Origin: Patescibacteria group bacterium
GTDB taxonomy: Bacteria > Patescibacteriota > Patescibacteriia > UBA1558 > GWA2-36-10
NCBI GenBank assembly: GCA_041665505.1
Contig: JBAYIR010000003.1
Span: 45,363 to 109,362, forward strand
Reading direction: 5' to 3'
DNA length: 64,000 nucleotides
This document shows, piece after piece, positions 38,471 through 62,404 of this stretch (positions within the stretch are counted from its first letter, which is position 1; every line of letters starts with the position of its first letter). The notes under the pieces are model-generated. The model made no database searches and had not been told where the DNA came from. It was given only the letters and a program-made list of their open reading frames with translations. The translations under genes were made by a program, and so were the position numbers.

Positions 38471-38558
38471 GGAGAGTTGGCAGAGCGGTCGAATGCGGCG
38501 GTCTTGAAAACCGTTGAGCCGAAAGGTTCCGAGGGTTCGAATCCTTCACTCTCCGCCA
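38471..38558 (+). tRNA. tRNA-Ser (anticodon TGA), long variable arm, encoded CCA
   Basis: Manual cloverleaf: 7-bp acceptor GGAGAGT/ACTCTCC, anticodon loop CTTGAAA, long extra arm, T-arm GAGGG-TTCGAAT-CCTTC. Confidence 0.9.
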
Positions 38559-38692
38559 TTCGATTCCGTCGCGTATGACGCGACTTCACTCATGGCCTTC
38601 GGCCACTTATTTGGTATATAAAGTGATAAGTTGTCGAATGTCCTGAGCGATCCCGAGCATAGCGAGGGAGAGTCGAAGGGCAGGAGTATATT
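38553..38692 (+). repeat. Repeat R1 copy 1 (~95-nt well-conserved core within a ~140-nt span), immediately 3' of tRNA-Ser(TGA); second copy at 62189-62320
   Basis: About 93% identity over attccgtcgcgtatgacgcga ... ggccttcggccacttatttggtatataaagtgataagtt.tcgaatgtcctgagcga. Contains a gtcgcgt-atg-acgcgac hairpin and a ggcc-ttc-ggcc hairpin. Confidence 0.7.
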
Positions 38693-38727
38693 ACCGATAG
38701 GCAGTAGTTACTTTGTTTTTTTATCAT

Positions 38728-38803
38728 GTCCTCGTAGCTCAATGGATAGAGCGTTTGGTTGCGGTCCAAAAGGCTGCAGGTTCGATTCCTGCCGGGGACA
38801 CCA
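38728..38803 (+). tRNA. tRNA-Arg (anticodon reads GCG), encoded CCA
   Basis: Manual cloverleaf: acceptor GTCCTCG/CGGGGAC, D-stem GCTC/GAGC, anticodon stem TTTGG/CCAAA with loop TTGCGGT, T-arm GCAGG-TTCGATT-CCTGC. Confidence 0.8.
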
Positions 38804-38846
38804 CACTTCGCTAAAGTAAGGTTGTTTATTAAAATTTATTTATTTA

Positions 38847-39186
38847 GGAGAGGTGGCAGATCCCGCAAGGCGGGACCCCGCTACGCGGGGGTGGCTTAAA
38901 AAGCTTACTGTTATGTATAAAGTTTATATTTTACAAAGTATTAAATATAAAATATATTATATAGGGCATACTAAAGATATAAATGATAGAATGAGCAGAC
39001 ATAATAGTGGGGGATCGTCTTATTCAAAAAAATTTATGCCTTGGAAATTGATTTATACTGAATTTTATAATACTAAATCGGAAGCTTATAAAAGAGAGTT
39101 AGAAATTAAAAGTTATAAAGGTGGTATAAAATTTAAAAAGTTGATAGGAGTTTGGGAAAAATAGTTTATTAAAATTTATTTATCAT
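38847..39186 (+). mobile_element. GIY-YIG nuclease cassette inserted into the 5' region of tRNA-Ser(GCT), duplicating ~35 nt of target
   Basis: attaaaatttatttat plus ggagaggtggcaga occurs both at 38825-38860 and at 39168-39200 (the true tRNA start). Between the two copies lie the conserved GC-rich double hairpin and an 83-aa GIY-YIG ORF. Confidence 0.45.
38913..39164 (+). CDS. Small GIY-YIG (URI-domain) nuclease, UPF0213/COG2827-like
   Basis: YKVYILQSIKYKIYYIGHTKDINDRMSRHN ... YKRELEIKSYKGG shows the GIY-(x10)-YIG and R..HN motifs. The upstream in-frame ATG at 38853 lies in the GC hairpin, so it is unlikely to be the start. Confidence 0.75.
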   Translation: MYKVYILQSIKYKIYYIGHTKDINDRMSRHNSGGSSYSKKFMPWKLIYTEFYNTKSEAYKRELEIKSYKGGIKFKKLIGVWEK

Positions 39187-39276
39187 GGAGAGGTGGCAGA
39201 GTGGTCGAATGCGGCACCCTGCTAAGGTGTTATCCGGGAAACCGGATCGAGGGTTCGAATCCCTCCCTCTCCGCCA
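39187..39276 (+). tRNA. tRNA-Ser (anticodon GCT), long variable arm, encoded CCA
   Basis: Manual cloverleaf: acceptor GGAGAGG/CCTCTCC, anticodon stem GCACC/GGTGT with loop CTGCTAA, long extra arm, T-arm GAGGG-TTCGAAT-CCCTC. Confidence 0.9.
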
Positions 39277-39365
39277 CATCGAGCTAGCACGAGGATCTAG
39301 AGAGACTCGAGCGCTCGAGGATGTAAAAAACAACTTCTTTATGAAGCTGTTTTTTTGTTTAATAA
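39277..39365 (+). repeat. att-like segment plus terminator directly 3' of tRNA-Ser(GCT); related copies at 41860-41975 and 62315-62375
   Basis: Shared agctagcacgagga core and a conserved aaaaaacaacttctt..gaag..gttttttgtt hairpin/T-run terminator module. Confidence 0.55.
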
Positions 39366-39369
39366 ATTA

Positions 39370-40044
39370 TTAAGTATTTTCTGGTTTTATCACACCATCT
39401 TTAAGCCAAATGACTCTGTCTACGTGTTTTCTATCATCTAATTCATGAGTGACCATGATGATAGTCTGACCAATTTCTTTATTAAGTTTTTTGAATAATT
39501 TTAAAATTGTTTCTGATGATTCACTATCCAGATTTGCTGTCGGTTCATCGGCAAATAAAATAGCCGGATCGTTTACTAAGGCCCTGGCAATAGCTACTCT
39601 TTGTTGTTCTCCACCAGACATTTCTTTTGGCAGATGATATATACGTTCACCAAGCCCAACTTTTTCTAACATTTCAGTGGCTTTCTTAATGTATTGGCTC
39701 TTGGATGCACCAGTGAGCATAAGTGGTAAATAGACTGACTCAAGAGCGTTTAATTCTGGTAATAAAGCATAAGACTGAAAAACGTAGCCTAATTTTTTTA
39801 AACGAAATTCACTTTTTTGCTTTTCCGTAAATGATACTATATTTGTACCATCAATAATAATCTGACCTGCCGTAGGAGAATCCAAAAGACCAAGTTGGTG
39901 AAGAAGTGTAGATTTACCAGAACCACTTCGTCCCATAAGAGCAATAAATTCACCTTTTTTTACGCCAAAACTGACCTCTTTAAGTGCATAAGTTGGAACT
40001 TTTCCTTCGTATGTTTTTTTTAATTTTTTTACTTCAATAATCAT
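39370..40044 (-). CDS. ABC transporter ATP-binding protein (MacB/FtsE/LolD-like). The start is taken at the internal MIIEVKKLKK; the 40128 ATG would overlap the permease.
   Basis: Walker A GRSGSGKST, Q-loop, signature LSGGEQQRVAIARAL, Walker B ILFADEPT, and H-loop. Confidence 0.85.
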   Translation of the reverse strand: MIIEVKKLKKTYEGKVPTYALKEVSFGVKKGEFIALMGRSGSGKSTLLHQLGLLDSPTAGQIIIDGTNIVSFTEKQKSEFRLKKLGYVFQSYALLPELNALESVYLPLMLTGASKSQYIKKATEMLEKVGLGERIYHLPKEMSGGEQQRVAIARALVNDPAILFADEPTANLDSESSETILKLFKKLNKEIGQTIIMVTHELDDRKHVDRVIWLKDGVIKPENT

Positions 40045-40063
40045 TTGTGTTTTATTATTAGGT

Positions 40064-41278
40064 TTAGCCCCATATTGAATCAAGGATACTTTCTTTTGTA
40101 CCTCGAAATGCTGGTATAAAACCACCAATTAAAGCTGCTACCATAAGACTAATATTACTTATTCTAATTATATTAAAGGTGATTTTTAGTGATACCCAAC
40201 CGACTGGAAAATCCAAAGGATTATCTATAAAAAATGGCCGAACAAGAAATAATATTATACTGACACCAAGAATAATTCCAATAATGGCATAAAATATAGC
40301 TTGCATAACAAAAGATAAAATTATAGTATTTTCTTTCATTCCGATAGCTTTTAGTATTCCAATTTGTCGTCTTTTGTTTACAATACTAACAAAAATAATA
40401 ATAAATATGGTAATTCCTGCCACAACAGTACCAATTGCTCCTAAGATAATACTAATCATAGTAAAGCTCTTGCTGGCGCTAGAAGTAAAGCCAGTTAGTT
40501 GTTTCCAAGTCTTTATATCTTCATCGTGTAAGCCTGCTTGTCTTATTTGTTCTATATATTTTTCTTCTTGCCCTTTTTCGTCAATTTTTACTATTATTTC
40601 TGAAGCTAAATTATAGACATGGAGAACTGACTCCATTTCTTTTGTAGTAATAAAAGCCATTTGATCTGCTTGGCTATTTTTTGTAGAAAAAATACCTTTG
40701 ATAGTATAAGTTCTTTTTATACCATTGCTAAATTTAACATCAATTTGATCACCAACATACACACCTCCTAAGCTAAGATAATCTAGATCTCCACCATGGC
40801 TGCCAGCAATTTCTTTTCCGATAACTATCTTATCTCTATCGTTGTCTTCTAAATATTCACCCTCAATTATAGAATCACTAATTTTGGTTACCTGTGTTTC
40901 ATCGGCTACATCCACTGATTTTATGAGCCATTTTCCTTGCTGAACATCACGACCATCATGATTTTCATCATAGCTAATAGCAGTATTATTTATATAGTGA
41001 GCAGAACTAGCGACTATTCCAGGTATTGTGTCTATAGAATTCATAGCATCTTTATTTTCTATATAAATTTCATCATCAGCTGGAGCTATTACAATGTTAC
41101 TATATAGATTATTTATTGATTGTTCATTAATAGCTTCAACAATTCCACCAAAGACAGATGAAATAAAAATTAAATTAACATAAGCCAAGGTCATGATAAG
41201 TATGGTCATAGCTAGAGTACCTTTGTTGCCCCGAATAATTGATGTTCGAGCTAGAAAAAAAGAAGCTTTAATATTCAT
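40064..41278 (-). CDS. ABC transporter permease, FtsX/MacB-like
   Basis: N-terminal TM, a large extracytoplasmic domain, and three C-terminal TMs (FtsX-fold topology). Immediately upstream of the ATPase. Confidence 0.75.
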   Translation of the reverse strand: MNIKASFFLARTSIIRGNKGTLAMTILIMTLAYVNLIFISSVFGGIVEAINEQSINNLYSNIVIAPADDEIYIENKDAMNSIDTIPGIVASSAHYINNTAISYDENHDGRDVQQGKWLIKSVDVADETQVTKISDSIIEGEYLEDNDRDKIVIGKEIAGSHGGDLDYLSLGGVYVGDQIDVKFSNGIKRTYTIKGIFSTKNSQADQMAFITTKEMESVLHVYNLASEIIVKIDEKGQEEKYIEQIRQAGLHDEDIKTWKQLTGFTSSASKSFTMISIILGAIGTVVAGITIFIIIFVSIVNKRRQIGILKAIGMKENTIILSFVMQAIFYAIIGIILGVSIILFLVRPFFIDNPLDFPVGWVSLKITFNIIRISNISLMVAALIGGFIPAFRGTKESILDSIWG

Positions 41279-41280
41279 TA

Positions 41281-41700
41281 TTATTTGTTATTAACCAATA
41301 AAGATAGTTTTTTTAAGATTAATATAAAATCTCGACGTTCTTTGGCTGATAAAAGAGACAACCTCTTATGTAAATGTTTTTTTGATTTCGCAAAACCTGC
41401 CTGTAATTCCTTTTTACCTTTATTACTAATACCCAAACGAACTATTCGTTTATCATCAGCATCATAAACACGCTTAACTAGCCCTAATTTTATTAGGTTG
41501 TTTACCAAGAAGGTAGCAGATGGTGGAGTGATATTTAGATACTCAGCGACATTTTTCATTATTGGATTTTTTTGATGTAAAATAAAAGACAAGGCTTGTA
41601 ATTGAATATAAGATGGGGAACCCTTTTCATGTTCCATACCTTCTTTGGTTAATCTATTCATTGTAAATACCAAGTCAATTAGTTCGTCTATGTCGGGCAT
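41281..41700 (-). CDS. MarR-family transcriptional regulator
   Basis: Winged-helix region LSFILHQKNPIMKNVAEYLNITPPSATFLVNNLIKLGLVKRVYDADDKRIVRLGIS; 139 aa. Confidence 0.8.
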   Translation of the reverse strand: MPDIDELIDLVFTMNRLTKEGMEHEKGSPSYIQLQALSFILHQKNPIMKNVAEYLNITPPSATFLVNNLIKLGLVKRVYDADDKRIVRLGISNKGKKELQAGFAKSKKHLHKRLSLLSAKERRDFILILKKLSLLVNNK

Positions 41701-41859: not shown

Positions 41860-41975
41860 TTAACATCTTAGAGCTAGCACGAGGATGTTCGAATCCCTTT
41901 GTGTCCGCCACTTCGTGCTAGCACGAGGGACTTAAAAAACAACTTCTTGAAGAAGGTGTTTTTTGTTTTAACTTA
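41860..41975 (+). repeat. Degenerate tRNA-Ser 3' fragment with att-like core and terminator module (island junction)
   Basis: gaggatgttcgaatccctttgtgtccgcca resembles the T-arm and acceptor 3' end of tRNA-Ser(GCT), flanked by agctagcacgagga / cttcgtgctagcacgaggg repeats and the conserved terminator hairpin. Confidence 0.55.
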
Positions 41976-42032
41976 GCTTGATTTTAGTAGTTTGTAGGTG
42001 TAAAGTGTAAATATTATTAACTCTTATGTAAT

Positions 42033-46076: not shown

Positions 46077-47387
46077 CTATACCAGCTTAATTTTTTTATT
46101 CATATAAATTAACTTGCTTTCTAGATTAGTTAGTAATTCTCTTTTTTCTAAAATTGAACCTTCTTTGAGTAAATATTTAGTATAATTTTTAATATCGATG
46201 TCGTCTACGTTAATGTCTTTAGTTTCTCCAGTTACCATACTTTGGAATTCTTTAAATCGTTTAATTTCATATTTTAATTTATTTTGTATAGGTAACTTTT
46301 TAATATCCAGCTTATCTACCAACTTTTGTAATTGTTTAATCAAATCTACTTCATTTATATACCCACACTTACAATGTTTATCTTTTGCTTTAGTACACCC
46401 ATAATAAATATGTTTGTTAGTATCTCCATTTTTTAATTTCTTGAATTTTTCAGTTGCAGATATACCAGAACCACAAAGTCCACATTTCATTATTTTAGTA
46501 AAAGCAAATTCAATATTTTCTTTTCTAACAAGTTGTGAATTTTTCATCTGATCTTGAACCATATCAAATAATTCTTTTGTTATTATCGGTTCATGCTTAC
46601 CTTGATACCAATTACCACTACCCCGTGGATATTCAAAAGGGCCATAGTAGAAAGTATTTTCAAGTAAGCGATAAATATTACCAAGACTCAAATGTTTTTT
46701 GCCCAAATGTGTTCTGAAGTTTAAATCAAATTTAAGCCAGTGATATATTTTTCTGCCCGACCATTTCTCATAAGCAACTTTTTCAAACATTTGTTTTATA
46801 ATATGGCCTCTATCTGGATCAACTAGACATTCTCCTTTGTGATCTATTCGTTTTTCTTTGAAATATCCAGTTGGCGGACAAGTTGGCCACAAACCCATTT
46901 CACATCTTGTCCTTAAACCACGTTTAACATTTATGCCTCTGTTATCATTTTCCAGTTTAGCTTGAGAACATAGAATCATTAATAAGAATTTTTCGTTTGG
47001 TGAATTACTAAACGTTTGTCCGTAGGTACGAATACCAAGAAGTTTTTTAGCATCCATCAGATCCACCAAAGACCCCAGATCTCCTGCGTTTCTAGATAGT
47101 CTATCTGGCGCCCAAGTTAAGATAGCATTAAATCTTTCTTCTGATATATCATGAATTAATTCTTTAAACACAGGACGATTACCAGAATCTTTAGCTGATT
47201 TGGATTCTCTTCTGATATCAATAATTTCAAGGTTTTCACGTTCTGCAATTTGAAGCATTTCTTTAACTTGAGAATCAATTGATAGAGCTTGTCGTTCATC
47301 TGATTCAGTACTTTTTCGGGCGTATAGGCAATACTTCAATTTAATGTCTGGGGTTAGCCCAAATTTGGTTTGTTGTGATATATTCAT
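46077..47387 (-). CDS. Large serine recombinase (resolvase N-domain, recombinase domain, zinc ribbon)
   Basis: N-terminal YARKSTESDERQALSIDSQ (catalytic Ser region), R..G motif, recombinase domain, and a C-terminal Cys cluster (CGLCGS ... YYGCTKAKDKHCKCG); 436 aa. Confidence 0.85.
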   Translation of the reverse strand: MNISQQTKFGLTPDIKLKYCLYARKSTESDERQALSIDSQVKEMLQIAERENLEIIDIRRESKSAKDSGNRPVFKELIHDISEERFNAILTWAPDRLSRNAGDLGSLVDLMDAKKLLGIRTYGQTFSNSPNEKFLLMILCSQAKLENDNRGINVKRGLRTRCEMGLWPTCPPTGYFKEKRIDHKGECLVDPDRGHIIKQMFEKVAYEKWSGRKIYHWLKFDLNFRTHLGKKHLSLGNIYRLLENTFYYGPFEYPRGSGNWYQGKHEPIITKELFDMVQDQMKNSQLVRKENIEFAFTKIMKCGLCGSGISATEKFKKLKNGDTNKHIYYGCTKAKDKHCKCGYINEVDLIKQLQKLVDKLDIKKLPIQNKLKYEIKRFKEFQSMVTGETKDINVDDIDIKNYTKYLLKEGSILEKRELLTNLESKLIYMNKKIKLV

Positions 47388-47401: not shown

Positions 47402-47466
47402 ACATTTTATAGCTTTTGCTAAGCTTTTAGCTGTCGACAACTTGTTGGCAAGTTTCCTTAGCAAAA
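47402..47466 (+). repeat. Direct repeat A (~65 nt, internal 10-bp dyad ttttgctaag/cttagcaaaa); partner B at 52165-52230
   Basis: acattttatagcttttgctaagc ... tgtcgacaacttgttggcaa.tttccttagcaaaa is shared by both copies (~88% identity) with a divergent 7-nt central block. Confidence 0.7.
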
Positions 47467-47684
47467 TCGTCAAAAAGCTTTATAATATGGACCTATATGT
47501 CATTTGCTAATATTAGCTATAAATTTGACATTACATCAGTTTAGTAGTATAAATTTATTGCTTGTCAGAGTTGGTACTTTGACAAATTTCGCTTTAAAAC
47601 GTAGAGTGTTATTGATAAAGCTTATTTATTGGTCATTTATCAATAATTTGATATACTTTATTAGTAAATAATTAATTTAAAACA

Positions 47685-48320
47685 ATGAAAAAACAAGGAG
47701 TAATAATTGTAGTGTTTATAATCCTAATAGTATTAGGTGGTTTGGCTTATTGGCAATCTGGCCAAAAACCAGTGGTTAATAATGAAAATAATAATCAAAA
47801 TACTACTAATCAAAATACGAACATTGACAACTCAAATGGGCAAAACACAGAAGAAGTAGACATGGGTGATTGGCTTATTTATACGAATGATGAATACAGG
47901 TTTAGTTTTAGATATCCTAAGGATTGGACTATTTATAATCAAAGTGATAAATACGTATCTTTTAACTACAGCCAAACTTATCTTTCTACAGAGTTGACTC
48001 TTTTTGTATTTCAAAACCCAAATAAAGAGTCTATTCATGATTTCTACAATAATATAGATGAAAATAAAAAAATAGCAGGTAATGATAGCCTAATGTATAA
48101 TTGGTATGCATCAACTGAAGACTATGGATCTCAAAAAAATATTGTAGTTGATGGCATTGAAGCAGTTAATTTTGTATCTCCTATGGGTATAATGGAAAAT
48201 ACTACTGTTTCCATACCAAAAGATAGTTTAATAGTAGAAATCCAAATTAGAGGTGTTGAAGAAATTTTGAAGGATAGTGAATATGAGGCAATTTTGAATA
48301 GTTTTGAATTTACAAATTAA
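47685..48320 (+). CDS. Hypothetical N-anchored secreted protein with an Asn/Gln-rich linker
   Basis: TM or signal anchor VIIVVFIILIVLGGLAYW, NNENNNQNTTNQNTN linker, and a ~150-aa globular part. AT-rich, host-like. Confidence 0.55.
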   Translation: MKKQGVIIVVFIILIVLGGLAYWQSGQKPVVNNENNNQNTTNQNTNIDNSNGQNTEEVDMGDWLIYTNDEYRFSFRYPKDWTIYNQSDKYVSFNYSQTYLSTELTLFVFQNPNKESIHDFYNNIDENKKIAGNDSLMYNWYASTEDYGSQKNIVVDGIEAVNFVSPMGIMENTTVSIPKDSLIVEIQIRGVEEILKDSEYEAILNSFEFTN

Positions 48321-52989: not shown

Positions 52990-53009
52990 TTATTATTAAA
53001 TAAATATTT

Positions 53010-53435
53010 ATGAAAAAGTACAGAGCTTTAAAAATTCTCTTAACACTTTTGCCAGCTTTGGTGTTTACTCAAAACTGGGCTTGGATGAGTGCTAACAAAA
53101 TACTAGGTATTGCTTTTATAGTAATATGGGCACTTATGATTTGGTCAGTTTGGAAAATAGACAATAAGTACAAAATATTACAAAAAATATTTAGAGCCAC
53201 AGAAATAGGTTTTTTCCTATTACCTATTTCAGCTATAATTCTTACCTTTGTCATAGGTGCCCAAGCAGTTAACTCAACTAACGATGAATTTGCTCAGGCT
53301 GGCGCCGCTATAGGTACAGCTATTGGTGGCACCTTTATTGTAGTCTTAGCTTTTATCTTTGGATTATCAGGAGGCATAATCTTGCACTTGATAGCCAACA
53401 AGTATGAGAAAAAGGCAGAGCAAAATAGTAAATAG
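53010..53435 (+). CDS. Small integral membrane protein (4 TM)
   Basis: 141 aa with four hydrophobic helices. Confidence 0.5.
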   Translation: MKKYRALKILLTLLPALVFTQNWAWMSANKILGIAFIVIWALMIWSVWKIDNKYKILQKIFRATEIGFFLLPISAIILTFVIGAQAVNSTNDEFAQAGAAIGTAIGGTFIVVLAFIFGLSGGIILHLIANKYEKKAEQNSK

Positions 53436-53438
53436 AAA

Positions 53439-54902
53439 TTAAGCAAAATAAATTCTATAAGTTTTTGGTCTATGTTCTGATAAGCTATGGACCAGATTGG
53501 CAAAGGCATCAGCTAAGTCGTCATGTTTTTCTACCCCAAAATGAATAATCTGTTGTATCAATTGTTCAGCTCCTTGTTTAGGAAATAGTATCTGTCCATT
53601 TTTGATCATGTTAGCTGTCAGGACAAGGCGACTACGCTTGTCCTGATTACCTGGCCTTGTTGTCATGACGTTCAAAATACCCTCACTTTCTAATTGTTGC
53701 GGCAAAGCTTTTTGATAAGCTACATCTTCAATAACAAAGGTAGGATGAATTTCGTCCTTTTCGTAGCTTTTGTCCAATATTTTGCAGGTATCAACGGTTT
53801 CCGGAAAGCTCAAACGTTTATTTATTATCTTTGGCAAAATATAAATCTGATAACCAGTTTTGGTTTCATATAGAAGTCCGGGAACCATAGCCGTATAATC
53901 AGCCACATTACTTTTTGAAATAGCTGGATCTATACCTATTCTTATTTCAATATGAGAAGAATAAGCACTGTCTATTTTTATAGGAGCTGGTATCTCATCA
54001 TAGTATTGAATCCATTCTGGATATATAACTTGATCTTCATCTGGAACTATATTAAGCATATATTCTCGTTGCCAAGCAATTTCATTGCCTGTTTTTTTTC
54101 GTTCTGTTTGTACGTCTTGCTCTGTAGGATATTTACCAGGCCAGAGACATTTTCCTTTACTATCAATAATTGGAAAATAAAGAAATTTTCCATCAATAAA
54201 ATCATTATCAATTTCACTTTTAAGTCGCATGAGAAGTGAATCTTCGTGTAATAAATTACCAACTATAACTAACCGTGTATTTTTATCTCCTGCTGGGATT
54301 AATTCTCCTTTTAACCATTGATAAGTCTTATTTCTTCCTTCTCTTGTTTTTGTAGAAGCAATATTTTCAACATCGTCACAGATTATCAAATCTGGTCTAT
54401 GCTCATGATGTCTTAAACCGCGAATACTTTGTTCTGAAGAAGCTACTGTAATACGAGCGTCTGTATTAGAAAATACCAATGACTGTGAACCCCACTCATC
54501 GCTATCTTCACGAAATGGGCCGAGGTCTTTTTTAAGTAATTCGTTGTCCTCAAGTTCACGGCGTAAATTCATCATATGCTGTTTGGCCTGGGCTTGTGTC
54601 TGACAAAATATAACGACGAATCTCTTTTGCTGTTTACCTAAAATAGCCCAAATAGGATAGGCGGTTGTAACCATTGTCGATTTTCCACTTCCCCTGAAGG
54701 CGACCACAAATAGATTGTCTCGGTCACTTATTTCTATTAAATGGATAATCTCTTTTTGGAAATCAGCTGTAGCGTATTTTACATAGTGAGCGTAATAAAA
54801 ATGGAAAAAATATGAAAAACTTTCTTTAGTTATTGTCGTCCTTACTTTCCTGTCCTTGGTCATCTGGTCTACCAGATCCTGTGGTATCATTTTGTTTGTC
54901 AT
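53439..54902 (-). CDS. Phage terminase large subunit
   Basis: N-terminal ATPase Walker A VAFRGSGKSTMVT and Walker B LIICDDVEN. C-terminal RNaseH-like nuclease region with acidic residues; 487 aa. Confidence 0.75.
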   Translation of the reverse strand: MTNKMIPQDLVDQMTKDRKVRTTITKESFSYFFHFYYAHYVKYATADFQKEIIHLIEISDRDNLFVVAFRGSGKSTMVTTAYPIWAILGKQQKRFVVIFCQTQAQAKQHMMNLRRELEDNELLKKDLGPFREDSDEWGSQSLVFSNTDARITVASSEQSIRGLRHHEHRPDLIICDDVENIASTKTREGRNKTYQWLKGELIPAGDKNTRLVIVGNLLHEDSLLMRLKSEIDNDFIDGKFLYFPIIDSKGKCLWPGKYPTEQDVQTERKKTGNEIAWQREYMLNIVPDEDQVIYPEWIQYYDEIPAPIKIDSAYSSHIEIRIGIDPAISKSNVADYTAMVPGLLYETKTGYQIYILPKIINKRLSFPETVDTCKILDKSYEKDEIHPTFVIEDVAYQKALPQQLESEGILNVMTTRPGNQDKRSRLVLTANMIKNGQILFPKQGAEQLIQQIIHFGVEKHDDLADAFANLVHSLSEHRPKTYRIYFA

Positions 54903-55296
54903 CTGATTTATTATTTAATGGTAAAATCTCCGCCAGTTGCAAAGCTTTGCGTACAATCTCTGCTTGTGACGGTGTAAGTTCTCCTGAGTCTTCAAATTTA
55001 GAAGTAACTTCCACTTTATCTCTAAATTTTGGATTTCTATGATTAAGCCAAAATCTTATAGCCGAAAAGTTTTTTTCTTTTATAAGGGTAAGTAATTGGC
55101 TTTCACTCATATCATTGACCAATGCCTCACCTTCGGTTAATGCCTCATCCATAGCTTTAGAGAAATTTTTATCATCTCGTTTCCAACGATAGATACTATT
55201 TCTTGAGATACCTGTTTTTTCACAGGCTATCTGTACGATTGGAATTTTCTTTAGTTCCTCTAGGAATATATTTTTGATTTTATTTTTCTTAGACAT
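54826..55296 (-). CDS. HTH DNA-binding protein, probable phage terminase small subunit
   Basis: IVQIACEKTGISRNSIYRWKRDD helix-turn-helix, acidic C-terminal tail, positioned immediately upstream of and overlapping the large terminase. Confidence 0.5.
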   Translation of the reverse strand: MSKKNKIKNIFLEELKKIPIVQIACEKTGISRNSIYRWKRDDKNFSKAMDEALTEGEALVNDMSESQLLTLIKEKNFSAIRFWLNHRNPKFRDKVEVTSKFEDSGELTPSQAEIVRKALQLAEILPLNNKSDDKQNDTTGSGRPDDQGQESKDDNN

Positions 55297-56563
55297 GATC
55301 CACCTTTGCCTTTCTGCCAGTTAACTTCTCATATCTTCTAATTGTTAGGTCACAAAATATAGGCTCTAACTCAAGGGCATATACTTTTCGTTTTAATTGT
55401 TCCCCAGCTGAAATGGTGCTACCTAACCCAGAGAAGGAATCTAAAATGATGTCGCCAGGCTTAGTACAACGGCGAATAGCCTTCTCGTGTAGCTTTGGTG
55501 GTTTGCTGGTCGCGTGTTCGTATTTTTGACCAGATAAGCGTTTTACCAACCATATATCAAGCTCATCAGAAGCTTCACTAAGTAGATTATTGCCAGTTGT
55601 TATTTCTTTATTCAATACCTCATTTAAGTTTTGAATTGATGGTGCAATATATGGTTTTCCTATAACCCCATATACTGTTGGCTCATAACATTTATTAAAA
55701 GCCACTTTTGGTGTCGGGTTTTGAGAGTTTTTGAGCCATAGGCAAACTCGCTTGTTTACTATGCCAAGCTCTCGATATAATTCTTGAATTAATCCTATGT
55801 AGGTTTGGTCACACCAGTAGAAAATATGGCAATTTGATTTAGTAATTGATAGTGCTACCACCAGAGTTTCTTTTATGAAGTTTCTATATTCCTCATAGGT
55901 ACGGCTATCATTTACATTACCGCCGTAGTCATTTTTACCTCCAATACCTTTTGAGTAATTAAGATTGATGTTATATGGGGGATCGGAATAAATCATTGAA
56001 GCTTTTTCATTCCCAAACAATCTTTTTAGATTTTTCGTATCGCTAGAGCTACCACATAACAACTTATGTGGTCCCAGATGAATTAAATCACCTAGTTTAG
56101 TTTTAGGCTCTTTAATCTTTTTAATTTCTTCATCAACGTCAAAGTCTTCATCTTTAACCTCTAGATTATTATCCCATAGGTGTGATAGATCAACTTGATC
56201 GAATCCTATGTCGACCAATAGGTCTAAATCAAAAGATTTGAGTTTTTCGAAATCCCATTCACCACCTAGAGCGTTGCTGGCTATAAGGTAGCTATCTGAT
56301 TCCTTTTTGGTTAAAGGTCTGTTGGGGATGCGGATATCAATTAACTCTTCTCCTCGACCTAGTAGCTGAAGAGCTTTAATTCTTTGATGTCCTGCGAGTA
56401 TCTTGCCGTCTAGGTCAATTGCTGGTATCTCTACCAAATTGTATCTTTTCAGGCTTTTTTTGAGATCCGACATTTGCTTGTCGGAAATAGTTCGTGGGTT
56501 AATATCTTGGGGGACAAGATCATTAACCCGTTTCGGCACGGTGTGCCATTTTAATTTTTCCAT
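55289..56563 (-). CDS. Phage-type DNA methyltransferase with an N-terminal ParB-like nuclease domain (N6-adenine or N4-cytosine class)
   Basis: ParB-N-like VEIPAIDLDGKILAGHQRIKAL, motif IV SDPPY, and a SAM-binding region FSGLGSTISAGE; 424 aa. Confidence 0.8.
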   Translation of the reverse strand: MEKLKWHTVPKRVNDLVPQDINPRTISDKQMSDLKKSLKRYNLVEIPAIDLDGKILAGHQRIKALQLLGRGEELIDIRIPNRPLTKKESDSYLIASNALGGEWDFEKLKSFDLDLLVDIGFDQVDLSHLWDNNLEVKDEDFDVDEEIKKIKEPKTKLGDLIHLGPHKLLCGSSSDTKNLKRLFGNEKASMIYSDPPYNINLNYSKGIGGKNDYGGNVNDSRTYEEYRNFIKETLVVALSITKSNCHIFYWCDQTYIGLIQELYRELGIVNKRVCLWLKNSQNPTPKVAFNKCYEPTVYGVIGKPYIAPSIQNLNEVLNKEITTGNNLLSEASDELDIWLVKRLSGQKYEHATSKPPKLHEKAIRRCTKPGDIILDSFSGLGSTISAGEQLKRKVYALELEPIFCDLTIRRYEKLTGRKAKVDHV

Positions 56564-56734
56564 AACATTTTATGGTTAGTTGGTTAAAAAATGTATGGAT
56601 AAGAAAAAACCTATTCCACACACGAAATAGATGAAGTCCTAAAACCTCAAAGCTATTTCTTGCGCGGAACAGGCATGGCTTTTTCAGCGATACGCTATTC
56701 TACTTTTTACTACGCATTAAATTGTACTTATATT

Positions 56735-57142
56735 TTAATCCACATTTTTATTTTTTGCAAGTTTGCGGATAATCCTTTGACCATTTTTACTTTTTATAAA
56801 ATTTTCGGTATCTTTGCCTATGGCTATTGGCAGGCCATCTTTGGGTATGGAAATTAGCACTTTGTAGCCTTTTTTCTCTTCTTTTTGTAATAATTTAATA
56901 AAAGAGGGATCTTTATACAGATTTTCCAAAAACCAATCAGCACTAGGAGTATGACCATTGTTTATAATAGGACCATAAACTCGGTCTGGCCTGTTTTGGT
57001 CAAAAGCATGTTTTACTTTCTTACCTATATATTTCGTCGGCTGTTTGTCACTGGTATGCAGAGCAAAATCAGTCAATTGAATAACCTTGTATTTGACCCC
57101 ATCTTGCCTTTTAAATGGTTTTACCTCTAGTTTGTAGTCCAT
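56735..57142 (-). CDS. Hypothetical protein (135 aa)
   Basis: ORF with host-like composition in the phage-derived module; no motif recognised. Confidence 0.4.
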   Translation of the reverse strand: MDYKLEVKPFKRQDGVKYKVIQLTDFALHTSDKQPTKYIGKKVKHAFDQNRPDRVYGPIINNGHTPSADWFLENLYKDPSFIKLLQKEEKKGYKVLISIPKDGLPIAIGKDTENFIKSKNGQRIIRKLAKNKNVD

Positions 57143-57151
57143 AGTTATTTT

Positions 57152-57397
57152 TTAGCCTTTAGATTTAGTTGGATCAGCGCTCTTGGGATAGGTTCGTTCT
57201 TCTTCATAGGTTCCATCCATTTTTTTAATTTTTACAGATCCGCCTTCATTACCTACGGCTTTTCTTAAAATTCCGCCAGCTGTGGCCTCTTCTTTAGTTT
57301 CGAAAGTTTTAACGATTTTATCTGTTTTGTCATTTTCTAGTTCCCAACGATCTTTTTTTGCGTTGTAATCGAGGGTAAATTTTGGTAATTTTGCCAT
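57152..57397 (-). CDS. DUF2188-like small protein
   Basis: W.L ... KTFETKEEATAGG ... GSVKIKKMDGTYEEERTY fits the DUF2188 pattern common on phages and mobile elements. Confidence 0.45.
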   Translation of the reverse strand: MAKLPKFTLDYNAKKDRWELENDKTDKIVKTFETKEEATAGGILRKAVGNEGGSVKIKKMDGTYEEERTYPKSADPTKSKG

Positions 57398-57416
57398 AAA
57401 TTTGTAGTTTATTTAA

Positions 57417-57689
57417 TTATAAGTTATTTTTAATCCAGGTACTTACATTTACCCCCAAATTTTTCCAGGCAGCGGCTCTATCCGTAACATCAATGATCAA
57501 TATTTTGTCATTGGCATCAAGATATTGTTGTACTGTATTTCTTAGCTGTTCTGCTGTGAGTGACGACTTAATTAACCATAACGATTCTAGGGGTTTTGCC
57601 CAGTTACTGTAGCTTTTTAAATGATGGTGCAAGGTAGAGTAATCCTTGCCAGGCCTAATAAGGTCATAAGATACTAAAAATGTGTTCAT
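57417..57689 (-). CDS. Hypothetical small alpha/beta protein (90 aa)
   Basis: ORF. The pattern V.YDL ... hydrophobic beta strand ... DKILIIDVTD loosely recalls the Cas2/VapD fold, but no array or cas genes are nearby. Confidence 0.4.
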   Translation of the reverse strand: MNTFLVSYDLIRPGKDYSTLHHHLKSYSNWAKPLESLWLIKSSLTAEQLRNTVQQYLDANDKILIIDVTDRAAAWKNLGVNVSTWIKNNL

Positions 57690-57784
57690 TTGATTATAAA
57701 TTAATTATTTTTCAATTCGGCAAAGTAAGTTTAACAAAATGATGAAGACTTGTCAAATCGTATTGAAAAGTCTATACTATCAGT

Positions 57785-58123
57785 ATGATAAATAAACAAA
57801 CCCCAGAACAATTTATTGGTTCCCGTATTAAAGCGGCGCGTGAAAAAAAACGATTTTCTCAGCTAGATTTGGCGAAGCTTCTTGGTTTTCAGTCAGCCAC
57901 CGCTATTTCATTAATAGAAGCTGGTGAAAGAGGTGTCCCAGCTATAATTTTAGAGAAGCTCGGTAAAGTGTTAGATCGTGATATTATGTATTTTTTAGGT
58001 AAAGAAAATACTACTCCAGATATCAAAGTAGCTTTAAGAGCCGACAAAGATCTGTCCGACGAAGACAAGGATGCTTTAAATTTATTTATTGACCTAGCTA
58101 AAAACAGAAAGAAACGTAAATGA
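57785..58123 (+). CDS. XRE-family HTH transcriptional regulator
   Basis: FSQLDLAKLLGFQSATAISLIEAGERGVP is a canonical XRE helix-turn-helix. Confidence 0.85.
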   Translation: MINKQTPEQFIGSRIKAAREKKRFSQLDLAKLLGFQSATAISLIEAGERGVPAIILEKLGKVLDRDIMYFLGKENTTPDIKVALRADKDLSDEDKDALNLFIDLAKNRKKRK

Positions 58124-58620
58124 ATGGAGAAATCACGGATTTAGGTCCACGTAAAAAAAGTGCAAAAATTATTGCCCAAAAACTTATAAAAGAAGCCGGA
58201 GTAAAAGCTGCTCCGGTTTCTTTACAATGTATTATAGAGCATCTTCAGTTAACACATGATCTTGAGGTTCGTCGAATTTTTACTAGTAAAAAGGTTTCTG
58301 GATTGCTTGTAGTCTGCAGTGAAATGGACAAAGAGTATTCAACTATAGGATTCAATGCTAATGATTCTTGGTATCGTAGGAGATTTACAATAGCACATGA
58401 AATTGGTCATCTTCTTTTTGGTCACGCCTGTACTAAGGGCCAAGGTAATGGTTCGCACAACGAAAGAGAGGCCGATGTTTTTGCTGCAGAATTACTTATA
58501 CCCACAAAACTTATAAAGATGGATTTTAAACAATTACCCAATTTACAGCAACTTTCTAATCTTTATAGAGTAAGCCAGCAAGCACTTACTATAAAGTTAA
58601 TAGAATGTCGGTTGGTGTGA
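58120..58620 (+). CDS. ImmA/IrrE-family metallopeptidase
   Basis: HEIGHLLFGH (HEXXH) preceded by RRRFTIA. A 4-nt overlap with the XRE gene, the classic XRE/ImmA pair. Confidence 0.8.
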   Translation: MNGEITDLGPRKKSAKIIAQKLIKEAGVKAAPVSLQCIIEHLQLTHDLEVRRIFTSKKVSGLLVVCSEMDKEYSTIGFNANDSWYRRRFTIAHEIGHLLFGHACTKGQGNGSHNEREADVFAAELLIPTKLIKMDFKQLPNLQQLSNLYRVSQQALTIKLIECRLV

Positions 58621-58647
58621 AGTTAAAAAATTAAAGTTTTTAATATA

Positions 58648-59313
58648 ATGGGTTTGTCTCAGGATAGAATTAAAGAATTTAAAGAACTTCTTGAAAAAAA
58701 GACAAAAAAAGAGGTTTCTTGGGCTGAAGCAGAAGAAGGGGCTAATAATTTAGCTAATTTTTTCAAACTTCTTTATGATCAGGAAGTAATAGAGAAAAAA
58801 CGTCAAATAAGGCTAGAAAAGGAGCCAAAAGGCTTTCATTTAGAGGGTAAAGGTTACACTTGTGCTATTTGTAAAAGGCCTATATCAGACGAAGAAACTT
58901 GGTATGATAAATGGGGTATTAAATGCCCAATATGCCAAAAAGCTATAAATAAAAGGATTATCCCTGGATCTGTGGCTAAAAATGATAATAGTTGGTACTC
59001 AAAATATGATTTAGAAAGTCGTTTTAATATAGATAGATATGCTATAAAACGATTTATTAAAGAGGGTGTTTTAAAACCTCGAATTGTCCCTAGCACATCA
59101 GGAAGACCACATGTATATCTATTTTTGATTAAGGACAACAAAGAAGTGCTACCACCTAAAAAATTAACAGAATCTCAACTAGTAAAAGAAATTAAAGAGG
59201 ATGGTAAAGAATGGCTTCGCTTAGAGCCGTGGTATAGGTTTGTTGATCCTTTTAAACATTTAGAGGGGTATAAAATTATGGAGTATTTAAAGTTTACAAA
59301 AGATAAGGCATGA
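58648..59313 (+). CDS. Hypothetical zinc-ribbon protein
   Basis: CAICKRP ... CPICQK pairs (CxxC ... CxxC); 221 aa; overlaps the next gene by 4 nt. Confidence 0.5.
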   Translation: MGLSQDRIKEFKELLEKKTKKEVSWAEAEEGANNLANFFKLLYDQEVIEKKRQIRLEKEPKGFHLEGKGYTCAICKRPISDEETWYDKWGIKCPICQKAINKRIIPGSVAKNDNSWYSKYDLESRFNIDRYAIKRFIKEGVLKPRIVPSTSGRPHVYLFLIKDNKEVLPPKKLTESQLVKEIKEDGKEWLRLEPWYRFVDPFKHLEGYKIMEYLKFTKDKA

Positions 59314-62015
59314 ATAAAATTGATACTAAAATTTTAGATATTGATAAAGTAATATGTAAAAATATTGATAGATTTGATGACTCTGAAAGAGGTTTACTAT
59401 CTCAAAATATCTTATCTCAACTTAGAAATTTTGTTGAGCATATTTCGTTAAAAGTACACAGTAATGGGAAAGATATTGAAAATACATATGAAAATATTCA
59501 GATAGCTAATGCTTATGTAAGAACAAGGGGTGAATTAAAATTTTTAAGTAAATTTCATAAACTTCTACAAATCACAGCCTCTCATTACACACTTGATACA
59601 GAAAACTCTGAAAGACTGATGTTAAAATATTATGAATACTTGCTTAAAATAAAGTTATATCTCAAGGATAATCACAATTTGGAGGTTCTGAAAAACATTG
59701 ATTCTTTTCCCATCAACACAGATACTGTGTTGCAAGAATACTATAAAAAAATAGTTGAAAAGATTAATCAATCAAAATCAACAAAGGCAGAAAATGATTA
59801 TGATAGATATTATATTCAGAAAATAAAACCATTTTTTGTTGAGTATAAAGTATATTATGAAGTTACTTTTACAGCAGCTAATGATAAGGCAAGTAAATTC
59901 GATAGAGTTATCGCATTCACGAAATTTGATATTTCACACAACTATGCTGTAAAACTTTCTGTAAGTAATGATACTATACAAATTTTAGATAAAAATATGC
60001 CCATTCAAATTATTGATGATTGGGAGGTGTCAATTCGTCCATGCGAGCTAAATAATTTTGCCAGCATATTTTTAGGAAATCGTTCAGGCATACAAAGCAA
60101 CTACAGTGAATACCGTAATCTAATGACATTTTTAACTAAAACGGGGTTAAATCTAGTTGAATTTATTGACTCCGCAGACGATTATTATAAAAAAATAAGA
60201 AGTCTTATAATTAAGGAAGCTAAAGCCGTTTATTTGTTTAATATTTTGGATAAGTGTCGCGAGTTAACACAAAGCAATAAATCAGGAAACAATGTTATTA
60301 GGTATTTATTATATAATTTGAATAATAAAATAATAAAACAACAACATAAATTTGGAGGTTGCCACCTATTATCAGATTTACATCTTGAATATGGATGTAT
60401 ACCTTTTGATAAAATGCCATTTAACACTTCCTTAATAGAACATAATCCAAAAATTTCTGATTTATTCGATTGTCTAGATTCAAGTAATAGAGAACATGAG
60501 ATATTTGCTAGGTTTATAAAAAATAATACTGAAACAAAGGGGCAGTTGTATACTCCTAAAAAAAATATCACTAGCTTTGAAAATATAGACAATCTTATGC
60601 AGTTATATAATGATAGTCTATATTATAAACATGCCCATCGTAAACTCGAAGAATATAAAAATCATATTTATATAAAGGGTTATGAAGAAGGCGCCTTCCA
60701 TATTATTAAAAATTTAAAAGACCTATCTTCTACGGGGATCAAAAATTATAAAAATTCTGTAAATTCTTGGTTAAAAACATCTGCATATGAAATTGATTGT
60801 GACGATAAAAAAGAAGCCTTAAGAAACATGTTTGAAAAATCAAGAGTAGCTTTAATATATGGTCCTGCTGGAACAGGAAAATCAACTATGATAAATCACG
60901 TATCTAACTTTCTCAATAATTACAGAAAACTATATTTGGCTAATACTAACCCGGCAGTCGAAAATCTAAAAAGAAGAGTTAACGCTTCTAACAGCACTAT
61001 TAAAACTATTACTAAATTTTTATCTGCTAGAAATGAAGATGTTGAATTTGATGTATTAATAATTGATGAATGTAGTACGGTTAGCAATTCTGATATGCAT
61101 AAAATTTTGGATAAAGCATCATTCGAATTATTAGTCTTAGTAGGAGATGTTTTTCAAATAGAGTCTATACTTTTCGGAAATTGGTTTAATATAGTACAGT
61201 CTTTCGTTCCAGAAACTTCAATATTTGAATTAACTAAACCATATCGTAGCAAAAATCCTAAGTTACTTAATCTATGGGATAAAGTCAGAAATATAGATGA
61301 TGATATAGATGAACAAATTACAAAACATAATTATTCAGCTACTTTAAATGAATCTTTTTTTACTAGTTCTGATGAAGATGAGATAATCCTGTGTCTTAAC
61401 TATGATGGACTTTATGGCATAAATAATATAAATAAATTTTTACAAAGTGATAATAAGAATAAACCAATAAATTGGGGTGTTCATACATATAAAGTTAATG
61501 ATCCTATATTATTTAATGAGTCAGAAAGATTTACACCTTTGATTTATAATAACTTAAAAGGAAAAATAGTCGGCATAAAAAAATTTAGTGACAAAATACA
61601 ATTTGATATTGAGATAGATAAGGCCATAAACCAGTTTGAAGCCGATAGATATGATTTTGAATTAATTGGTGATTCTAATAATGGTAACTCAATAATCCGT
61701 TTTTTTGTTAATAAGCATGGAAGTACGGATGAAGATGATGATTCATATTCAAATACTATAGTCCCTTTTCAAGTCGCTTATGCCGTATCAATACATAAAG
61801 CTCAAGGTTTAGAGTACAATTCAGTTAAAATTGTTATTATAGACGAAACGGAAGAAATGATTACCCATAATATTTTTTATACTGCTATAACAAGAGCTAG
61901 GGAAAAGTTAAAAATATACTGGACACCGGAAACTGGGCAAAAGATATTAAGCAATCTTGAGAGGAGAAATAACGGGAAAGATGCTAAATTATTAGCATTA
62001 AAATTTAATCTTTAA
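59310..62015 (+). CDS. SF1 DNA helicase (RecD/Pif1-like AAA_30 plus UvrD_C_2) with an uncharacterised ~480-aa N-terminal domain
   Basis: Walker A ALIYGPAGTGKST, Walker B VLIIDECSTVS, and C-terminal AYAVSIHKAQGLEYNSVKIV ... YTAITRAREKL typical of RecD/TraA-like SF1 helicases. Confidence 0.75.
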   Translation: MNKIDTKILDIDKVICKNIDRFDDSERGLLSQNILSQLRNFVEHISLKVHSNGKDIENTYENIQIANAYVRTRGELKFLSKFHKLLQITASHYTLDTENSERLMLKYYEYLLKIKLYLKDNHNLEVLKNIDSFPINTDTVLQEYYKKIVEKINQSKSTKAENDYDRYYIQKIKPFFVEYKVYYEVTFTAANDKASKFDRVIAFTKFDISHNYAVKLSVSNDTIQILDKNMPIQIIDDWEVSIRPCELNNFASIFLGNRSGIQSNYSEYRNLMTFLTKTGLNLVEFIDSADDYYKKIRSLIIKEAKAVYLFNILDKCRELTQSNKSGNNVIRYLLYNLNNKIIKQQHKFGGCHLLSDLHLEYGCIPFDKMPFNTSLIEHNPKISDLFDCLDSSNREHEIFARFIKNNTETKGQLYTPKKNITSFENIDNLMQLYNDSLYYKHAHRKLEEYKNHIYIKGYEEGAFHIIKNLKDLSSTGIKNYKNSVNSWLKTSAYEIDCDDKKEALRNMFEKSRVALIYGPAGTGKSTMINHVSNFLNNYRKLYLANTNPAVENLKRRVNASNSTIKTITKFLSARNEDVEFDVLIIDECSTVSNSDMHKILDKASFELLVLVGDVFQIESILFGNWFNIVQSFVPETSIFELTKPYRSKNPKLLNLWDKVRNIDDDIDEQITKHNYSATLNESFFTSSDEDEIILCLNYDGLYGINNINKFLQSDNKNKPINWGVHTYKVNDPILFNESERFTPLIYNNLKGKIVGIKKFSDKIQFDIEIDKAINQFEADRYDFELIGDSNNGNSIIRFFVNKHGSTDEDDDSYSNTIVPFQVAYAVSIHKAQGLEYNSVKIVIIDETEEMITHNIFYTAITRAREKLKIYWTPETGQKILSNLERRNNGKDAKLLALKFNL

Positions 62016-62188
62016 GCCCTATATTTATAAAAATTACAGCTAAATGTAACTTTATACTGGCTTGCCGTGTCACTTTTGTCACTTTTTTATAAAAATAAGG
62101 CGCACGAGGATCTATTGATTTGTAAAATTATAATATAGTAAAATAACCTTACTGGGCTTATTCGGAATACGGTTCCAGCCCGAAGTAG

Positions 62189-62320
62189 CCCGCCATTCAA
62201 TTCCGTCGCGTATGACGCGATTCCACTCATGGCCTTCGGCCACTTATTTGGTATATAAAGTGATAAGTTATCGAATGTCCTGAGCGAGTGAACAAAGTGA
62301 ACGAGTCGAAGGGCACTCGT
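62189..62320 (+). repeat. Repeat R1 copy 2, preceded by a degenerate tRNA-Ser(TGA)-like 3' half; right junction of the accessory region
   Basis: 62150-62197 cggaatacggttccagcccgaagtagcccgcca resembles the variable/T/acceptor 3' part of tRNA-Ser. A 95-nt segment ~93% identical to 38556-38650 follows, then the att/terminator module (62315-62375). Confidence 0.6.
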
Positions 62321-62404
62321 GCTAACACGAAGTACTTAAGAAAACAGCTTCTCAGGTAAGCCGTTTTTTGTTATTATAAAGATAATTAATATTTAGATTA
62401 TTGT

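Follow-up and report, generated by a model that had tools for sequence, protein, structure and literature searches.

We analysed a 64,000-nt stretch of DNA from a Patescibacteria group bacterium (assembly GCA_041665505.1, contig JBAYIR010000003.1, positions 45,363 to 109,362 of the forward strand), hereafter the window, in whose numbering all positions are given unless another locus is named. It holds a cluster of three tRNA genes followed by mosaic accessory DNA, together with a direct repeat, R1, which is our main subject: its first copy starts at the 3' end of tRNA-Ser(TGA), and its second stands at the far side of the accessory genes. The window's contig was followed past position 64000 as locus L017, ~9 kb beyond the window (73 kb in all). 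Three sister genomes (L001, L002 and L003) were available for comparison. RecG, encoded just 5' of the window tRNAs, places the window's genome in Candidatus Komeilibacteria of the candidate phyla radiation (CPR) and shows 77-78% identity to its counterparts in L001/L003 and 63% to that in L002.

tRNA cluster, R1 copies and the accessory block

Three tRNA genes were found in the window with ARAGORN and the Rfam tRNA model. The cluster and the two R1 copies comprise the following features (strand in brackets; ORF, open reading frame):

38379-38434 (+), GIY-YIG 5' module lacking an ORF: the first 14 nt of tRNA-Ser(TGA) duplicated, then two GC hairpins; repeat D9, 88% to 38836-38903
38471-38558 (+), tRNA-Ser(TGA), from ARAGORN and Rfam: syntenic in L001/L002/L003, core; R1 copy 1 follows directly on its encoded CCA
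38559-38681 (+), core of R1 copy 1 (R1a): covariance model 68.7 bits; helix P1 (TTCGATTC/GAGTCGAA), hairpin P2, a long P3 and hairpin P4 in a predicted four-way junction
38682-38727 (+), insertion tail of R1a: ends in a T-run and abuts position +1 of tRNA-Arg
38728-38803 (+), tRNA-Arg(GCG), from ARAGORN and Rfam: 96-97% identity to L001/L003; a core gene, not cargo
38804-39186 (+), GIY-YIG cassette: duplicated leader and first 14 nt of tRNA-Ser(GCT), two hairpins, ORF; repeats D7 and D9
39187-39276 (+), tRNA-Ser(GCT), from ARAGORN and Rfam: syntenic, core; the real anchor of the accessory block
62153-62195 (+), hairpin 5' of R1 copy 2: ends in CCGCCA
62196-62314 (+), core of R1 copy 2 (R1b): covariance model 68.5 bits; P4 differs from that of copy 1

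The order Ser(TGA)-Arg(GCG)-Ser(GCT) is kept in 3/3 sister genomes, with spacers of 0-12 nt and then 14-23 nt, and in L001 and L003 the CCA of tRNA-Ser(TGA) abuts tRNA-Arg with a 0-nt spacer. Because the three genes are packed together in L001, L002 and L003, tRNA-Arg and tRNA-Ser(GCT) are core genes and not cargo. Compared with the sisters, the window cluster carries three small insertions, namely the module at 38379-38434, R1a with its tail and the GIY-YIG cassette, where the spacer is 14-23 nt in L001-L003. R1a and its tail form a clean 169-nt insertion (38559-38727) between two core tRNAs, and there is no R1 at this position in any of the three sisters. Another 5'-side insertion scar was seen at 9156-9191 of L001, where the 5' half of tRNA-Ser(TGA), to the anticodon loop, is duplicated ~90 nt 5' of the intact gene.

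A first-pass annotation of this stretch had reported the repeat behind tRNA-Ser(TGA), which is real, but its second coordinates were ~4 nt off and the identity is 96%, not 93%: the repeat finder aligned 38553-38650 with 62190-62287 over 98 nt. The repeat opens on the six bases that end tRNA-Ser(TGA), CCGCCA, and past a non-homologous segment of 19 nt in one copy and 15 nt in the other, both copies have GAGTCGAAGGGC, at 38670 and 62303. Each of the two conserved R1 boxes occurs exactly twice in the window (0.05-0.06 expected), and a covariance model of the element, described below, detected just the two copies in the window and the 9 kb of contig beyond it, and none in the three sister loci. 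The fold energy of R1a is -57.2 kcal/mol (z = -3.68; matched by 0/200 shuffles), and R1b shows two pair-breaking substitutions relative to it. R1a and R1b have unrelated P4 segments, and the 96% identity of the 5' 98 nt beside these suggests recent copying or conversion between the two copies. The hairpin preceding R1b has a fold energy of -16.6 kcal/mol, reached by 14/500 shuffles, and its CCGCCA is the sole match to a tRNA-Ser 3' end. The 'degenerate tRNA-Ser-like 3' half' that had been described before copy 2 was not recovered: CCGCCA aside, 62140-62195 scored 12 against either tRNA-Ser, where the shuffle mean is 13.5. A promoter-like site lies at 62115-62144, upstream of R1b. One contig from another sample (L018) starts within R1b, at window position 62240, and no alternative junction or empty site was found in the same-species contigs of another sample, which break in R1b and, going by coordinates, where the 14 nt of tRNA-Ser(TGA) are duplicated.

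DNA and protein similarity to L001/L003 ends just after tRNA-Ser(GCT) (39276) and its trailer. Synteny resumes at ~64.8 kb, ~800 nt past the window end, with genes for a major facilitator superfamily (MFS) transporter, a phosphoribosyltransferase, ClpB, an M48 peptidase and LemA (70-93% to L001/L003). The empty form is present in L001, where the MFS gene directly follows tRNA-Ser(GCT), the same gene lying at ~64.8 kb in this genome. The break at 39276 and the resumption at ~64.8 kb thus define a block of 39277 to ~64790 that is absent from the sisters and is anchored at tRNA-Ser(GCT), not at tRNA-Ser(TGA). The latter had been proposed as the anchor, and in L001, L002 and L003 it is followed by tRNA-Arg and then tRNA-Ser(GCT). 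An empty site joining 38558 to ~62380, expected under that proposal, was found in none of the related genomes compared; such a join would delete two conserved tRNA genes.

The trailer of tRNA-Ser(GCT), a TCGTGCTAGCACGA hairpin with a terminator, is also found directly 3' of that tRNA in L002 and L003. The window has four occurrences of it, at 39279 (A), 41869 (partial), 41913 (B) and 62317 (C), and these together with one shorter piece make up the following series:

39277-39362 (+), trailer A, native-type: hairpin TCGAGCTAGCACGA, second hairpin, terminator; aligns with the L002/L003 trailers
41869-41971 (+), scar B: partial hairpin at 41869-41886, a 24-nt tRNA 3' fragment at 41887-41910, then trailer copy B with terminator; repeats D8 (86%) and D13 (84%)
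62102-62114 (+), trailer A piece: exact 13-nt copy of 39287-39299, GCACGAGGATCTA, with 2 in the window and 0.02 expected; a further scar
62316-62372 (+), trailer C: third full tRNA-Ser(GCT)-type hairpin and terminator; the last scar

No trailer copies were found downstream of trailer C, to the end of L017. The copy of GCACGAGGATCTA at 62102 stands ~50 nt before the hairpin preceding R1b and may represent either a core for recombination or an element site that has not recombined. The tRNA 3' end and its flank are repeated at internal and distal junctions (39253-39362; 41887-41971, at 84-86%; 62316-62372; partial at 41869 and 62102), and the distal copy retains just CCGCCA of the tRNA. At tRNA-Ser(GCT) we find two features of a tRNA-anchored array, synteny that breaks and later resumes, and direct repeats of the tRNA 3' end. 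Since the last trailer copy follows immediately on R1b, the right edge near 62.37 kb marks a true junction, in agreement with the first-pass annotation. That annotation was also correct in equating the module behind copy 2 (62316-62372) with the one after tRNA-Ser(GCT); it shows homology to the hairpin and terminator found there, both in the window and in the sisters. The first-pass view of the interval as mosaic accessory DNA with att-like scars at a tRNA cluster holds for most of the interval; the two inner tRNAs are placed in the core by sister synteny.

The R1 family and its placement at CCA ends

An exact scan of metagenome contigs with the R1 3' box pair returned at least 120 loci, which makes the box pair on its own a very common motif; some of these loci carry full R1-like elements of 95-135 nt. 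The layout of such elements is TTCGAYTC, a free-sequence hairpin (P2), YCRCTCAWGG ... GTCGAATG-TCCTGAGCGA, a second free-sequence hairpin (P4) and GAGTCGAAGGGC. Minimum-free-energy folds of most members predict the same four-way junction, in which P1 pairs TTCGAYTC with GAGTCGAA and P3 pairs CRCTCA with TGAGCG. Covariation was found in P2 and P4, with 13 pairs changed on both sides (reached by 0/500 shuffles), in a set of 11-12 sequences from which the structure was itself derived, and palindromes kept at the DNA level can yield the same signal; sliding the pairing partners abolishes it. P1 and P3 were recovered independently by RNAalifold, and the L148 element shows compensatory changes in these otherwise invariant helices (CTCGACTC with GAGTCGAG in P1; CGCTCG with CGAGCG in P3). 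On the tRNA strand of the family, 24 G-U pairs stand against 10 A-C mismatches. The covariance model was built from 11 members and detected further ones in metagenome loci, with elements of unrelated GC-rich bacteria scoring 67-100 bits.

Of the best members among the matches listed, 9/11 start 0-1 nt past a CCA. R1-like elements lie directly 3' of tRNA-Arg(CCT) in L045, of tRNA-Leu(CAG) in L067 and, in the case of R1a, of tRNA-Ser(TGA), 3' of a tRNA containing a group I intron in L088, and behind tRNA- or transfer-messenger RNA (tmRNA)-type 3' fragments in L048, L127 and L130, while a bare CCGCCA precedes R1b and the L101 element. Most members follow CCA ends of unrelated tRNAs and tmRNA, in several phyla, and terminators lie 3' of R1 in the tRNA direction. 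The intron in L088 (1320-1583, minus strand; Rfam 83 bits) gives one tRNA gene two different selfish or structured elements.

Three loci are of particular use for reading the window. The separate CPR contig L148 has, in order, a GIY-YIG cassette, tRNA-Ser(GGA), an R1-like element right after CCGCCA, 18 nt and then a hairpin-terminator trailer of the window type. In L101, CCGCCA, R1 and a trailer follow one another among unrelated neighbouring genes. In L048, a 2.7-kb islet stands between the two copies of a 62-nt direct repeat that covers tRNA-Leu(GAG) from its anticodon loop up to the CCA, and it is the displaced distal copy, not the intact tRNA, that has the R1-like element on its 3' side; judged from this arrangement, the element is part of the old tRNA flank and not of the islet.

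No match to R1 was found in Rfam 15, whether gathering scores were applied to the whole window, a cutoff of E <= 10 to the R1a region or one of E <= 1 to ten loci that include GC-rich members, and the tRNA covariance model gives it no score. Hammerhead, hatchet, pistol and twister ribozymes were considered for the conserved junction on the basis of their cores, and it matched no Rfam model. An exact scan of viral contigs with a long R1 pattern gave 0 matches, and a BLAST search of 72,556 plasmids with one GC-rich family member gave none. As no description of the element was found in the searched literature either, the family appears undescribed in Rfam 15 and in that literature, although it may already have been described under a different name. 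Set against the criteria for miniature inverted-repeat transposable elements (MITEs), R1 is short (119-169 nt) and ORF-less, with complementary boxes TTCGAYTC/GAGTCGAA and CRCTCA/TGAGCG; a target-site duplication was not seen. The short box pair, GTCCTGAGCGA-hairpin-GAGTCGAAGGGC, also occurs in tandem arrays (L029 3745-4581; L125; L126), and in L029 it is present five times within apparent repeated coding sequence, which suggests in-frame insertions.

GIY-YIG cassettes and accessory cargo

The GIY-YIG ORF of the window (38913-39164) encodes 83 aa (Pfam GIY-YIG, E = 2e-16), and Pfam revealed no recognisable DNA-binding domain in the 83-aa GIY-YIG proteins. In all contexts examined, homologues of the window GIY-YIG gene have a tRNA-Ser gene directly 3' of them, and the window-type 5' module precedes GIY-YIG genes in L142, L143 and L148. 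Each of the CPR GIY-YIG cassettes 5' of tRNA-Ser (TGA, GCT, GGA) opens with the first 14 nt of that tRNA and two GC hairpins, and ORF-less and tandem copies of these 5'-side cassettes also occur.

GIY-YIG ORFs also adjoin the R1 box-pair motif, in ~11 of the 120 loci listed, and R1-like leaders lie directly 5' of GIY-YIG ORFs in L030, L038, L056, L065 and L069. The cassettes found at tmRNA (L122, L138) consist, in order, of a hairpin with a sense box pair, the ORF, an antisense box pair CCCTTCGACTCCGCTCAGGAC and a duplicated tmRNA 3' end, and box 1 in both is the tmRNA T-loop itself. Because these boxes are common to R1 and the tmRNA GIY-YIG cassettes, the R1 copies look like ORF-less relatives of such cassettes.

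The genes that the first-pass annotation had listed were confirmed with Pfam and PHROGs; the full content of the accessory block is as follows:

39370-41700 (-), islet 1: ABC ATPase, FtsX permease and MarR regulator (Pfam); no counterpart at the syntenic position in L001-L003
42033-47387 (.), islet 2: a 261-aa ORF, DUF4238, a MutH-like endonuclease with a C5 methylase, and a recombinase (Pfam)
47685-52080 (+), PsbP-like gene and GC-rich surface-protein gene (Pfam): GC 0.44-0.49 vs ~0.33 elsewhere; homologue in L101
52312-52430 (+), LOOT RNA (Rfam RF03000): 89.4 bits (gathering score 46.4); immediately 5' of the phage-derived genes
52489-62015 (.), phage-derived remnant: small and large terminase, N6/N4 methylase, DUF2188, an XRE and ImmA-like pair, Dda-like helicase (Pfam)
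62405-64000 (+), an ORF of 199 aa and the first part of a glycosyltransferase gene: neither is present at the syntenic position in L001/L003

The recombinase of islet 2 is a 436-aa large serine recombinase (46077-47387, minus strand), which looks intact and is separated from the nearest scar by 4 kb; Pfam revealed no tyrosine integrase in the window. L002 has a 69% identical recombinase at equal distance from its own tRNA-Ser(GCT), accompanied by different defence cargo (an MmeI-type enzyme, a helicase and a T5orf172 protein), and the related recombinase with different cargo marks this site as a hotspot in the lineage. On another contig of the window's sample (L149 10470-12079), the gene for a 510-aa large serine recombinase, 28% identical to that of the window, overlaps the 3' end of tRNA-Ser(GGA) and opens a >10-kb island with Vsr, Z1 and AAA genes. 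No displaced R1 was found behind this island, with no R1 within 10 kb.

In the phage-derived remnant, PHROGs matches include phrog_38 at 6e-81 and phrog_325 at 1e-81, and no capsid or tail genes were recognised. The GC-rich gene at 48553-52080 (plus strand) encodes a 1175-aa protein with an M23 peptidase domain, PKD, LVIVD repeats and a C-terminal sorting domain of the type IX secretion system (T9SS) type, a domain unusual for the phylum. Repeat D6 (47405-47487 and 52169-52251; 83 nt, 81%) was considered as a pair of recombinase att sites and rejected; it reads as a duplicated promoter/operator module, with TTAGCA-17-TATAAT/TATGAT inside an inverted repeat TTTTGCTAAG...CTTAGCAAAA, one copy lying between the serine recombinase and the PsbP-like gene and the other upstream of the LOOT RNA. 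On the other side of the tRNA cluster, genes for PrgI-like, TraC-like and TraG/DUF87 ATPase proteins at 29298-32415 fall within the sister-syntenic block, and this secretion- or conjugation-like cluster is therefore part of the conserved region.

Origin of the arrangement and competing explanations

We consider it probable that R1a and R1b are two copies of a ~120-nt structured, palindrome-like element whose native place is between a tRNA-Ser CCA and the trailer, and that copy 2 was displaced by stepwise insertions at tRNA-Ser(GCT). On this account, tRNA-Ser(GCT) would once have had the order tRNA, R1, trailer, with R1a being the equivalent element behind tRNA-Ser(TGA). Accessory DNA would have entered in several steps at the tRNA-Ser(GCT) 3' end and trailer, leaving scars A, B and C and pushing R1b and trailer C ~23 kb away from that tRNA. 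The islands may have been inserted by site-specific recombinases, for which the large serine recombinase is the sole candidate present.

R1 itself is probably co-transcribed with the tRNA, and its cloverleaf-like junction, starting exactly at the CCA, may act as a processing signal, most plausibly as a tRNA-mimic site for RNase P. Because the CCA of tRNA-Ser(TGA) abuts position +1 of tRNA-Arg in the sisters, RNase P cleavage of tRNA-Arg would there create the tRNA-Ser 3' end; R1 as a tRNA mimic would keep such a cleavage site, and its insertion would then be harmless to tRNA 3'-end formation. This putative tRNA-mimic cleavage seems to us more likely than any single alternative. The element would spread as a relative, without an ORF, of the small GIY-YIG nuclease cassettes with the same boxes. 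An extended version holds that R1-like elements are phylum-spanning mobile cloverleaf RNAs specific for tRNA and tmRNA CCA ends, spread by minimal Slx1-like GIY-YIG nucleases that recognise four-way-junction or T-loop-like DNA, and tolerated because they recruit RNase P as tRNA mimics or self-cleave at the upstream CCA; this we regard as rather unlikely.

Several observations weigh against the account of displaced native elements or parts of it. The order of events, with R1 first and islands later, is drawn from only two analogies, L148 and L048. The tRNA fragment in scar B has an acceptor sequence unlike that of the resident tRNA-Ser(GCT), so that the history was more complex than a simple series, and the segment from 62373 to ~64790 is also missing from the sisters yet free of scars. 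R1a lacks a target-site duplication, its junctions being CCGCCA followed by TTCGATTC and TTTATCAT followed by GTCCTCG, and R1b, given its pair-breaking substitutions, may be decaying. P1 and P3 are almost invariant in sequence, which terminal inverted repeats, or DNA recognised by a protein, would explain no less well than RNA structure, and the two strands of R1 fold about equally well, the asymmetry between them being too weak to decide between RNA and DNA. As to the link with nucleases, none of the GIY-YIG genes found behind an R1 leader comes from a Komeilibacteria genome, and the GIY-YIG cassette of the window lies on the tRNA 5' side with hairpins different from those of R1.

The first-pass annotation had taken R1a and R1b as attL and attR of one ~24-kb island at tRNA-Ser(TGA) that carried two tRNAs as cargo. 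A 98-nt repeat of 96% identity that starts with the last 6 nt of tRNA-Ser(TGA), with accessory genes and a recombinase between its copies, speaks for this proposal, which we nevertheless find highly improbable, as the inner tRNAs are syntenic core in three sisters and the break is at 39276 and not 38558. Moreover, R1 occurs free of any island, in L148 between an intact tRNA-Ser and a terminator and elsewhere at CCA ends in other phyla, the sequence 5' of R1b is not tRNA-like and the P4 segments are unrelated. Nor does R1 qualify as a repeat of a tRNA 3' part, since just 6 nt (CCGCCA) of the tRNA are shared and the remainder lies beyond it. A related idea makes R1 the attachment site (attB or part of attP) of the island recombinase, so that its position at the distal edge would be causal. 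R1b does lie exactly at the last scar, the L149 serine recombinase gene overlaps a tRNA-Ser 3' end and the L048 islet stands between tRNA and R1-like element; against these stand box counts and covariance model searches that found no half or hybrid R1 at the tRNA-proximal junction or elsewhere in the window, the L048 direct repeat, which is of tRNA and not of R1, and the lack of an island behind R1a. We give this idea little credence.

That R1b is merely a local segmental copy, or a gene conversion, of the tRNA-Ser(TGA) flank, with no mobility or function and with a family likeness due to a low-information hairpin motif, would suit the patchy, conversion-typical pattern of 96% identity over the 5' 98 nt beside a different P4, as well as the pair-breaking changes of R1b. 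It appears improbable in view of L101 and L148, which have R1 at the equivalent CCGCCA/trailer position in other genomes, and of the family's model scores in unrelated GC-rich bacteria and its CCA adjacency. The alternative to be taken most seriously, possible although on balance doubtful, is that R1 is purely a DNA-level miniature inverted-repeat element whose boxes are bound by a nuclease or transposase (e.g. GIY-YIG), with the CCA placement reflecting target choice such as recognition of T-loop DNA. The boxes TTCGAYTC...GAGTCGAA and CGCTCA...TGAGCG do not vary and are complementary to each other; they also stand, inverted, on either side of GIY-YIG ORFs, with box 1 being the T-loop in the tmRNA cases; tandem or in-frame copies occur in coding sequence (L029, L125, L126), both strands fold alike, and presence or absence of R1 varies among relatives. 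Pointing the other way, R1a has no target duplication, P2 and P4 are kept by covariation despite their free sequence, the G-U bias is to the tRNA strand, the placement between tRNA and terminator is consistent and the 83-aa GIY-YIG proteins have no recognisable DNA-binding domain.

The window can be set beside several known kinds of element. In tRNA- and tmRNA-anchored island arrays, serial site-specific integration at the tRNA 3' end leaves direct repeats of the 3' part of the tRNA. The accessory block resembles these in that it starts at a tRNA, contains tRNA 3'-end and flank repeats, has mosaic cargo of defence, transport and phage genes and an internal recombinase, and differs in cargo from the sister genomes at the same tRNA; it is unlike them in having a serine and not a tyrosine recombinase, repeats that reach well into the trailer and a most conspicuous repeat, R1, that is not att. 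Palindromic miniature repeats such as the Rickettsia palindromic elements, the Neisseria Correia elements and enterobacterial repetitive intergenic consensus (ERIC) sequences are co-transcribed or in-frame. R1 shares with them its small size, lack of an ORF, stable inverted-repeat fold, variable presence and related tandem or in-coding units, whereas its four-way junction with two free hairpins is not a simple hairpin, its placement at CCA is strict and cross-phylum, and it has no target-site duplication. RNAs that mature from tRNA precursors or tRNA-like signals include the Escherichia coli 3'ETS-leuZ small RNA, MALAT1/mascRNA and the herpesvirus tRNA-microRNA units; like these, R1, known here from sequence alone, lies in the 3' external spacer before the terminator, starts at the tRNA end and is cloverleaf-like, and unlike them it has no score with the tRNA covariance model. 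SegB of phage T4 is a free-standing GIY-YIG homing-endonuclease cassette in a tRNA gene region (PMC2330249). The window is similar in its small GIY-YIG genes between tRNA genes, its copies of neighbouring tRNA ends and the boxes common to R1 and some ORF flanks, and differs in that the putative nucleases here, at 80-120 aa, seem to consist of the catalytic domain only and in that the R1 copies are ORF-less.

The island array is thus of an ordinary, known kind, and the R1 family, whose function we infer from its sequences, is the interesting part. For island prediction the locus is cautionary, in that the longest and cleanest tRNA-side repeat is not an att pair, and taking it for one would mislabel two essential tRNAs as cargo. 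If transcribed, R1 is a candidate for a new tRNA-linked processing signal or a selfish RNA; should it work as DNA instead, the single-domain GIY-YIG proteins, which are very common and uncharacterised, would have a candidate substrate in it. For the CPR, tRNA-Ser genes emerge as targets in three ways: 5' of the gene for GIY-YIG cassettes, at its CCA end for R1 and behind it for recombinase-borne islands.

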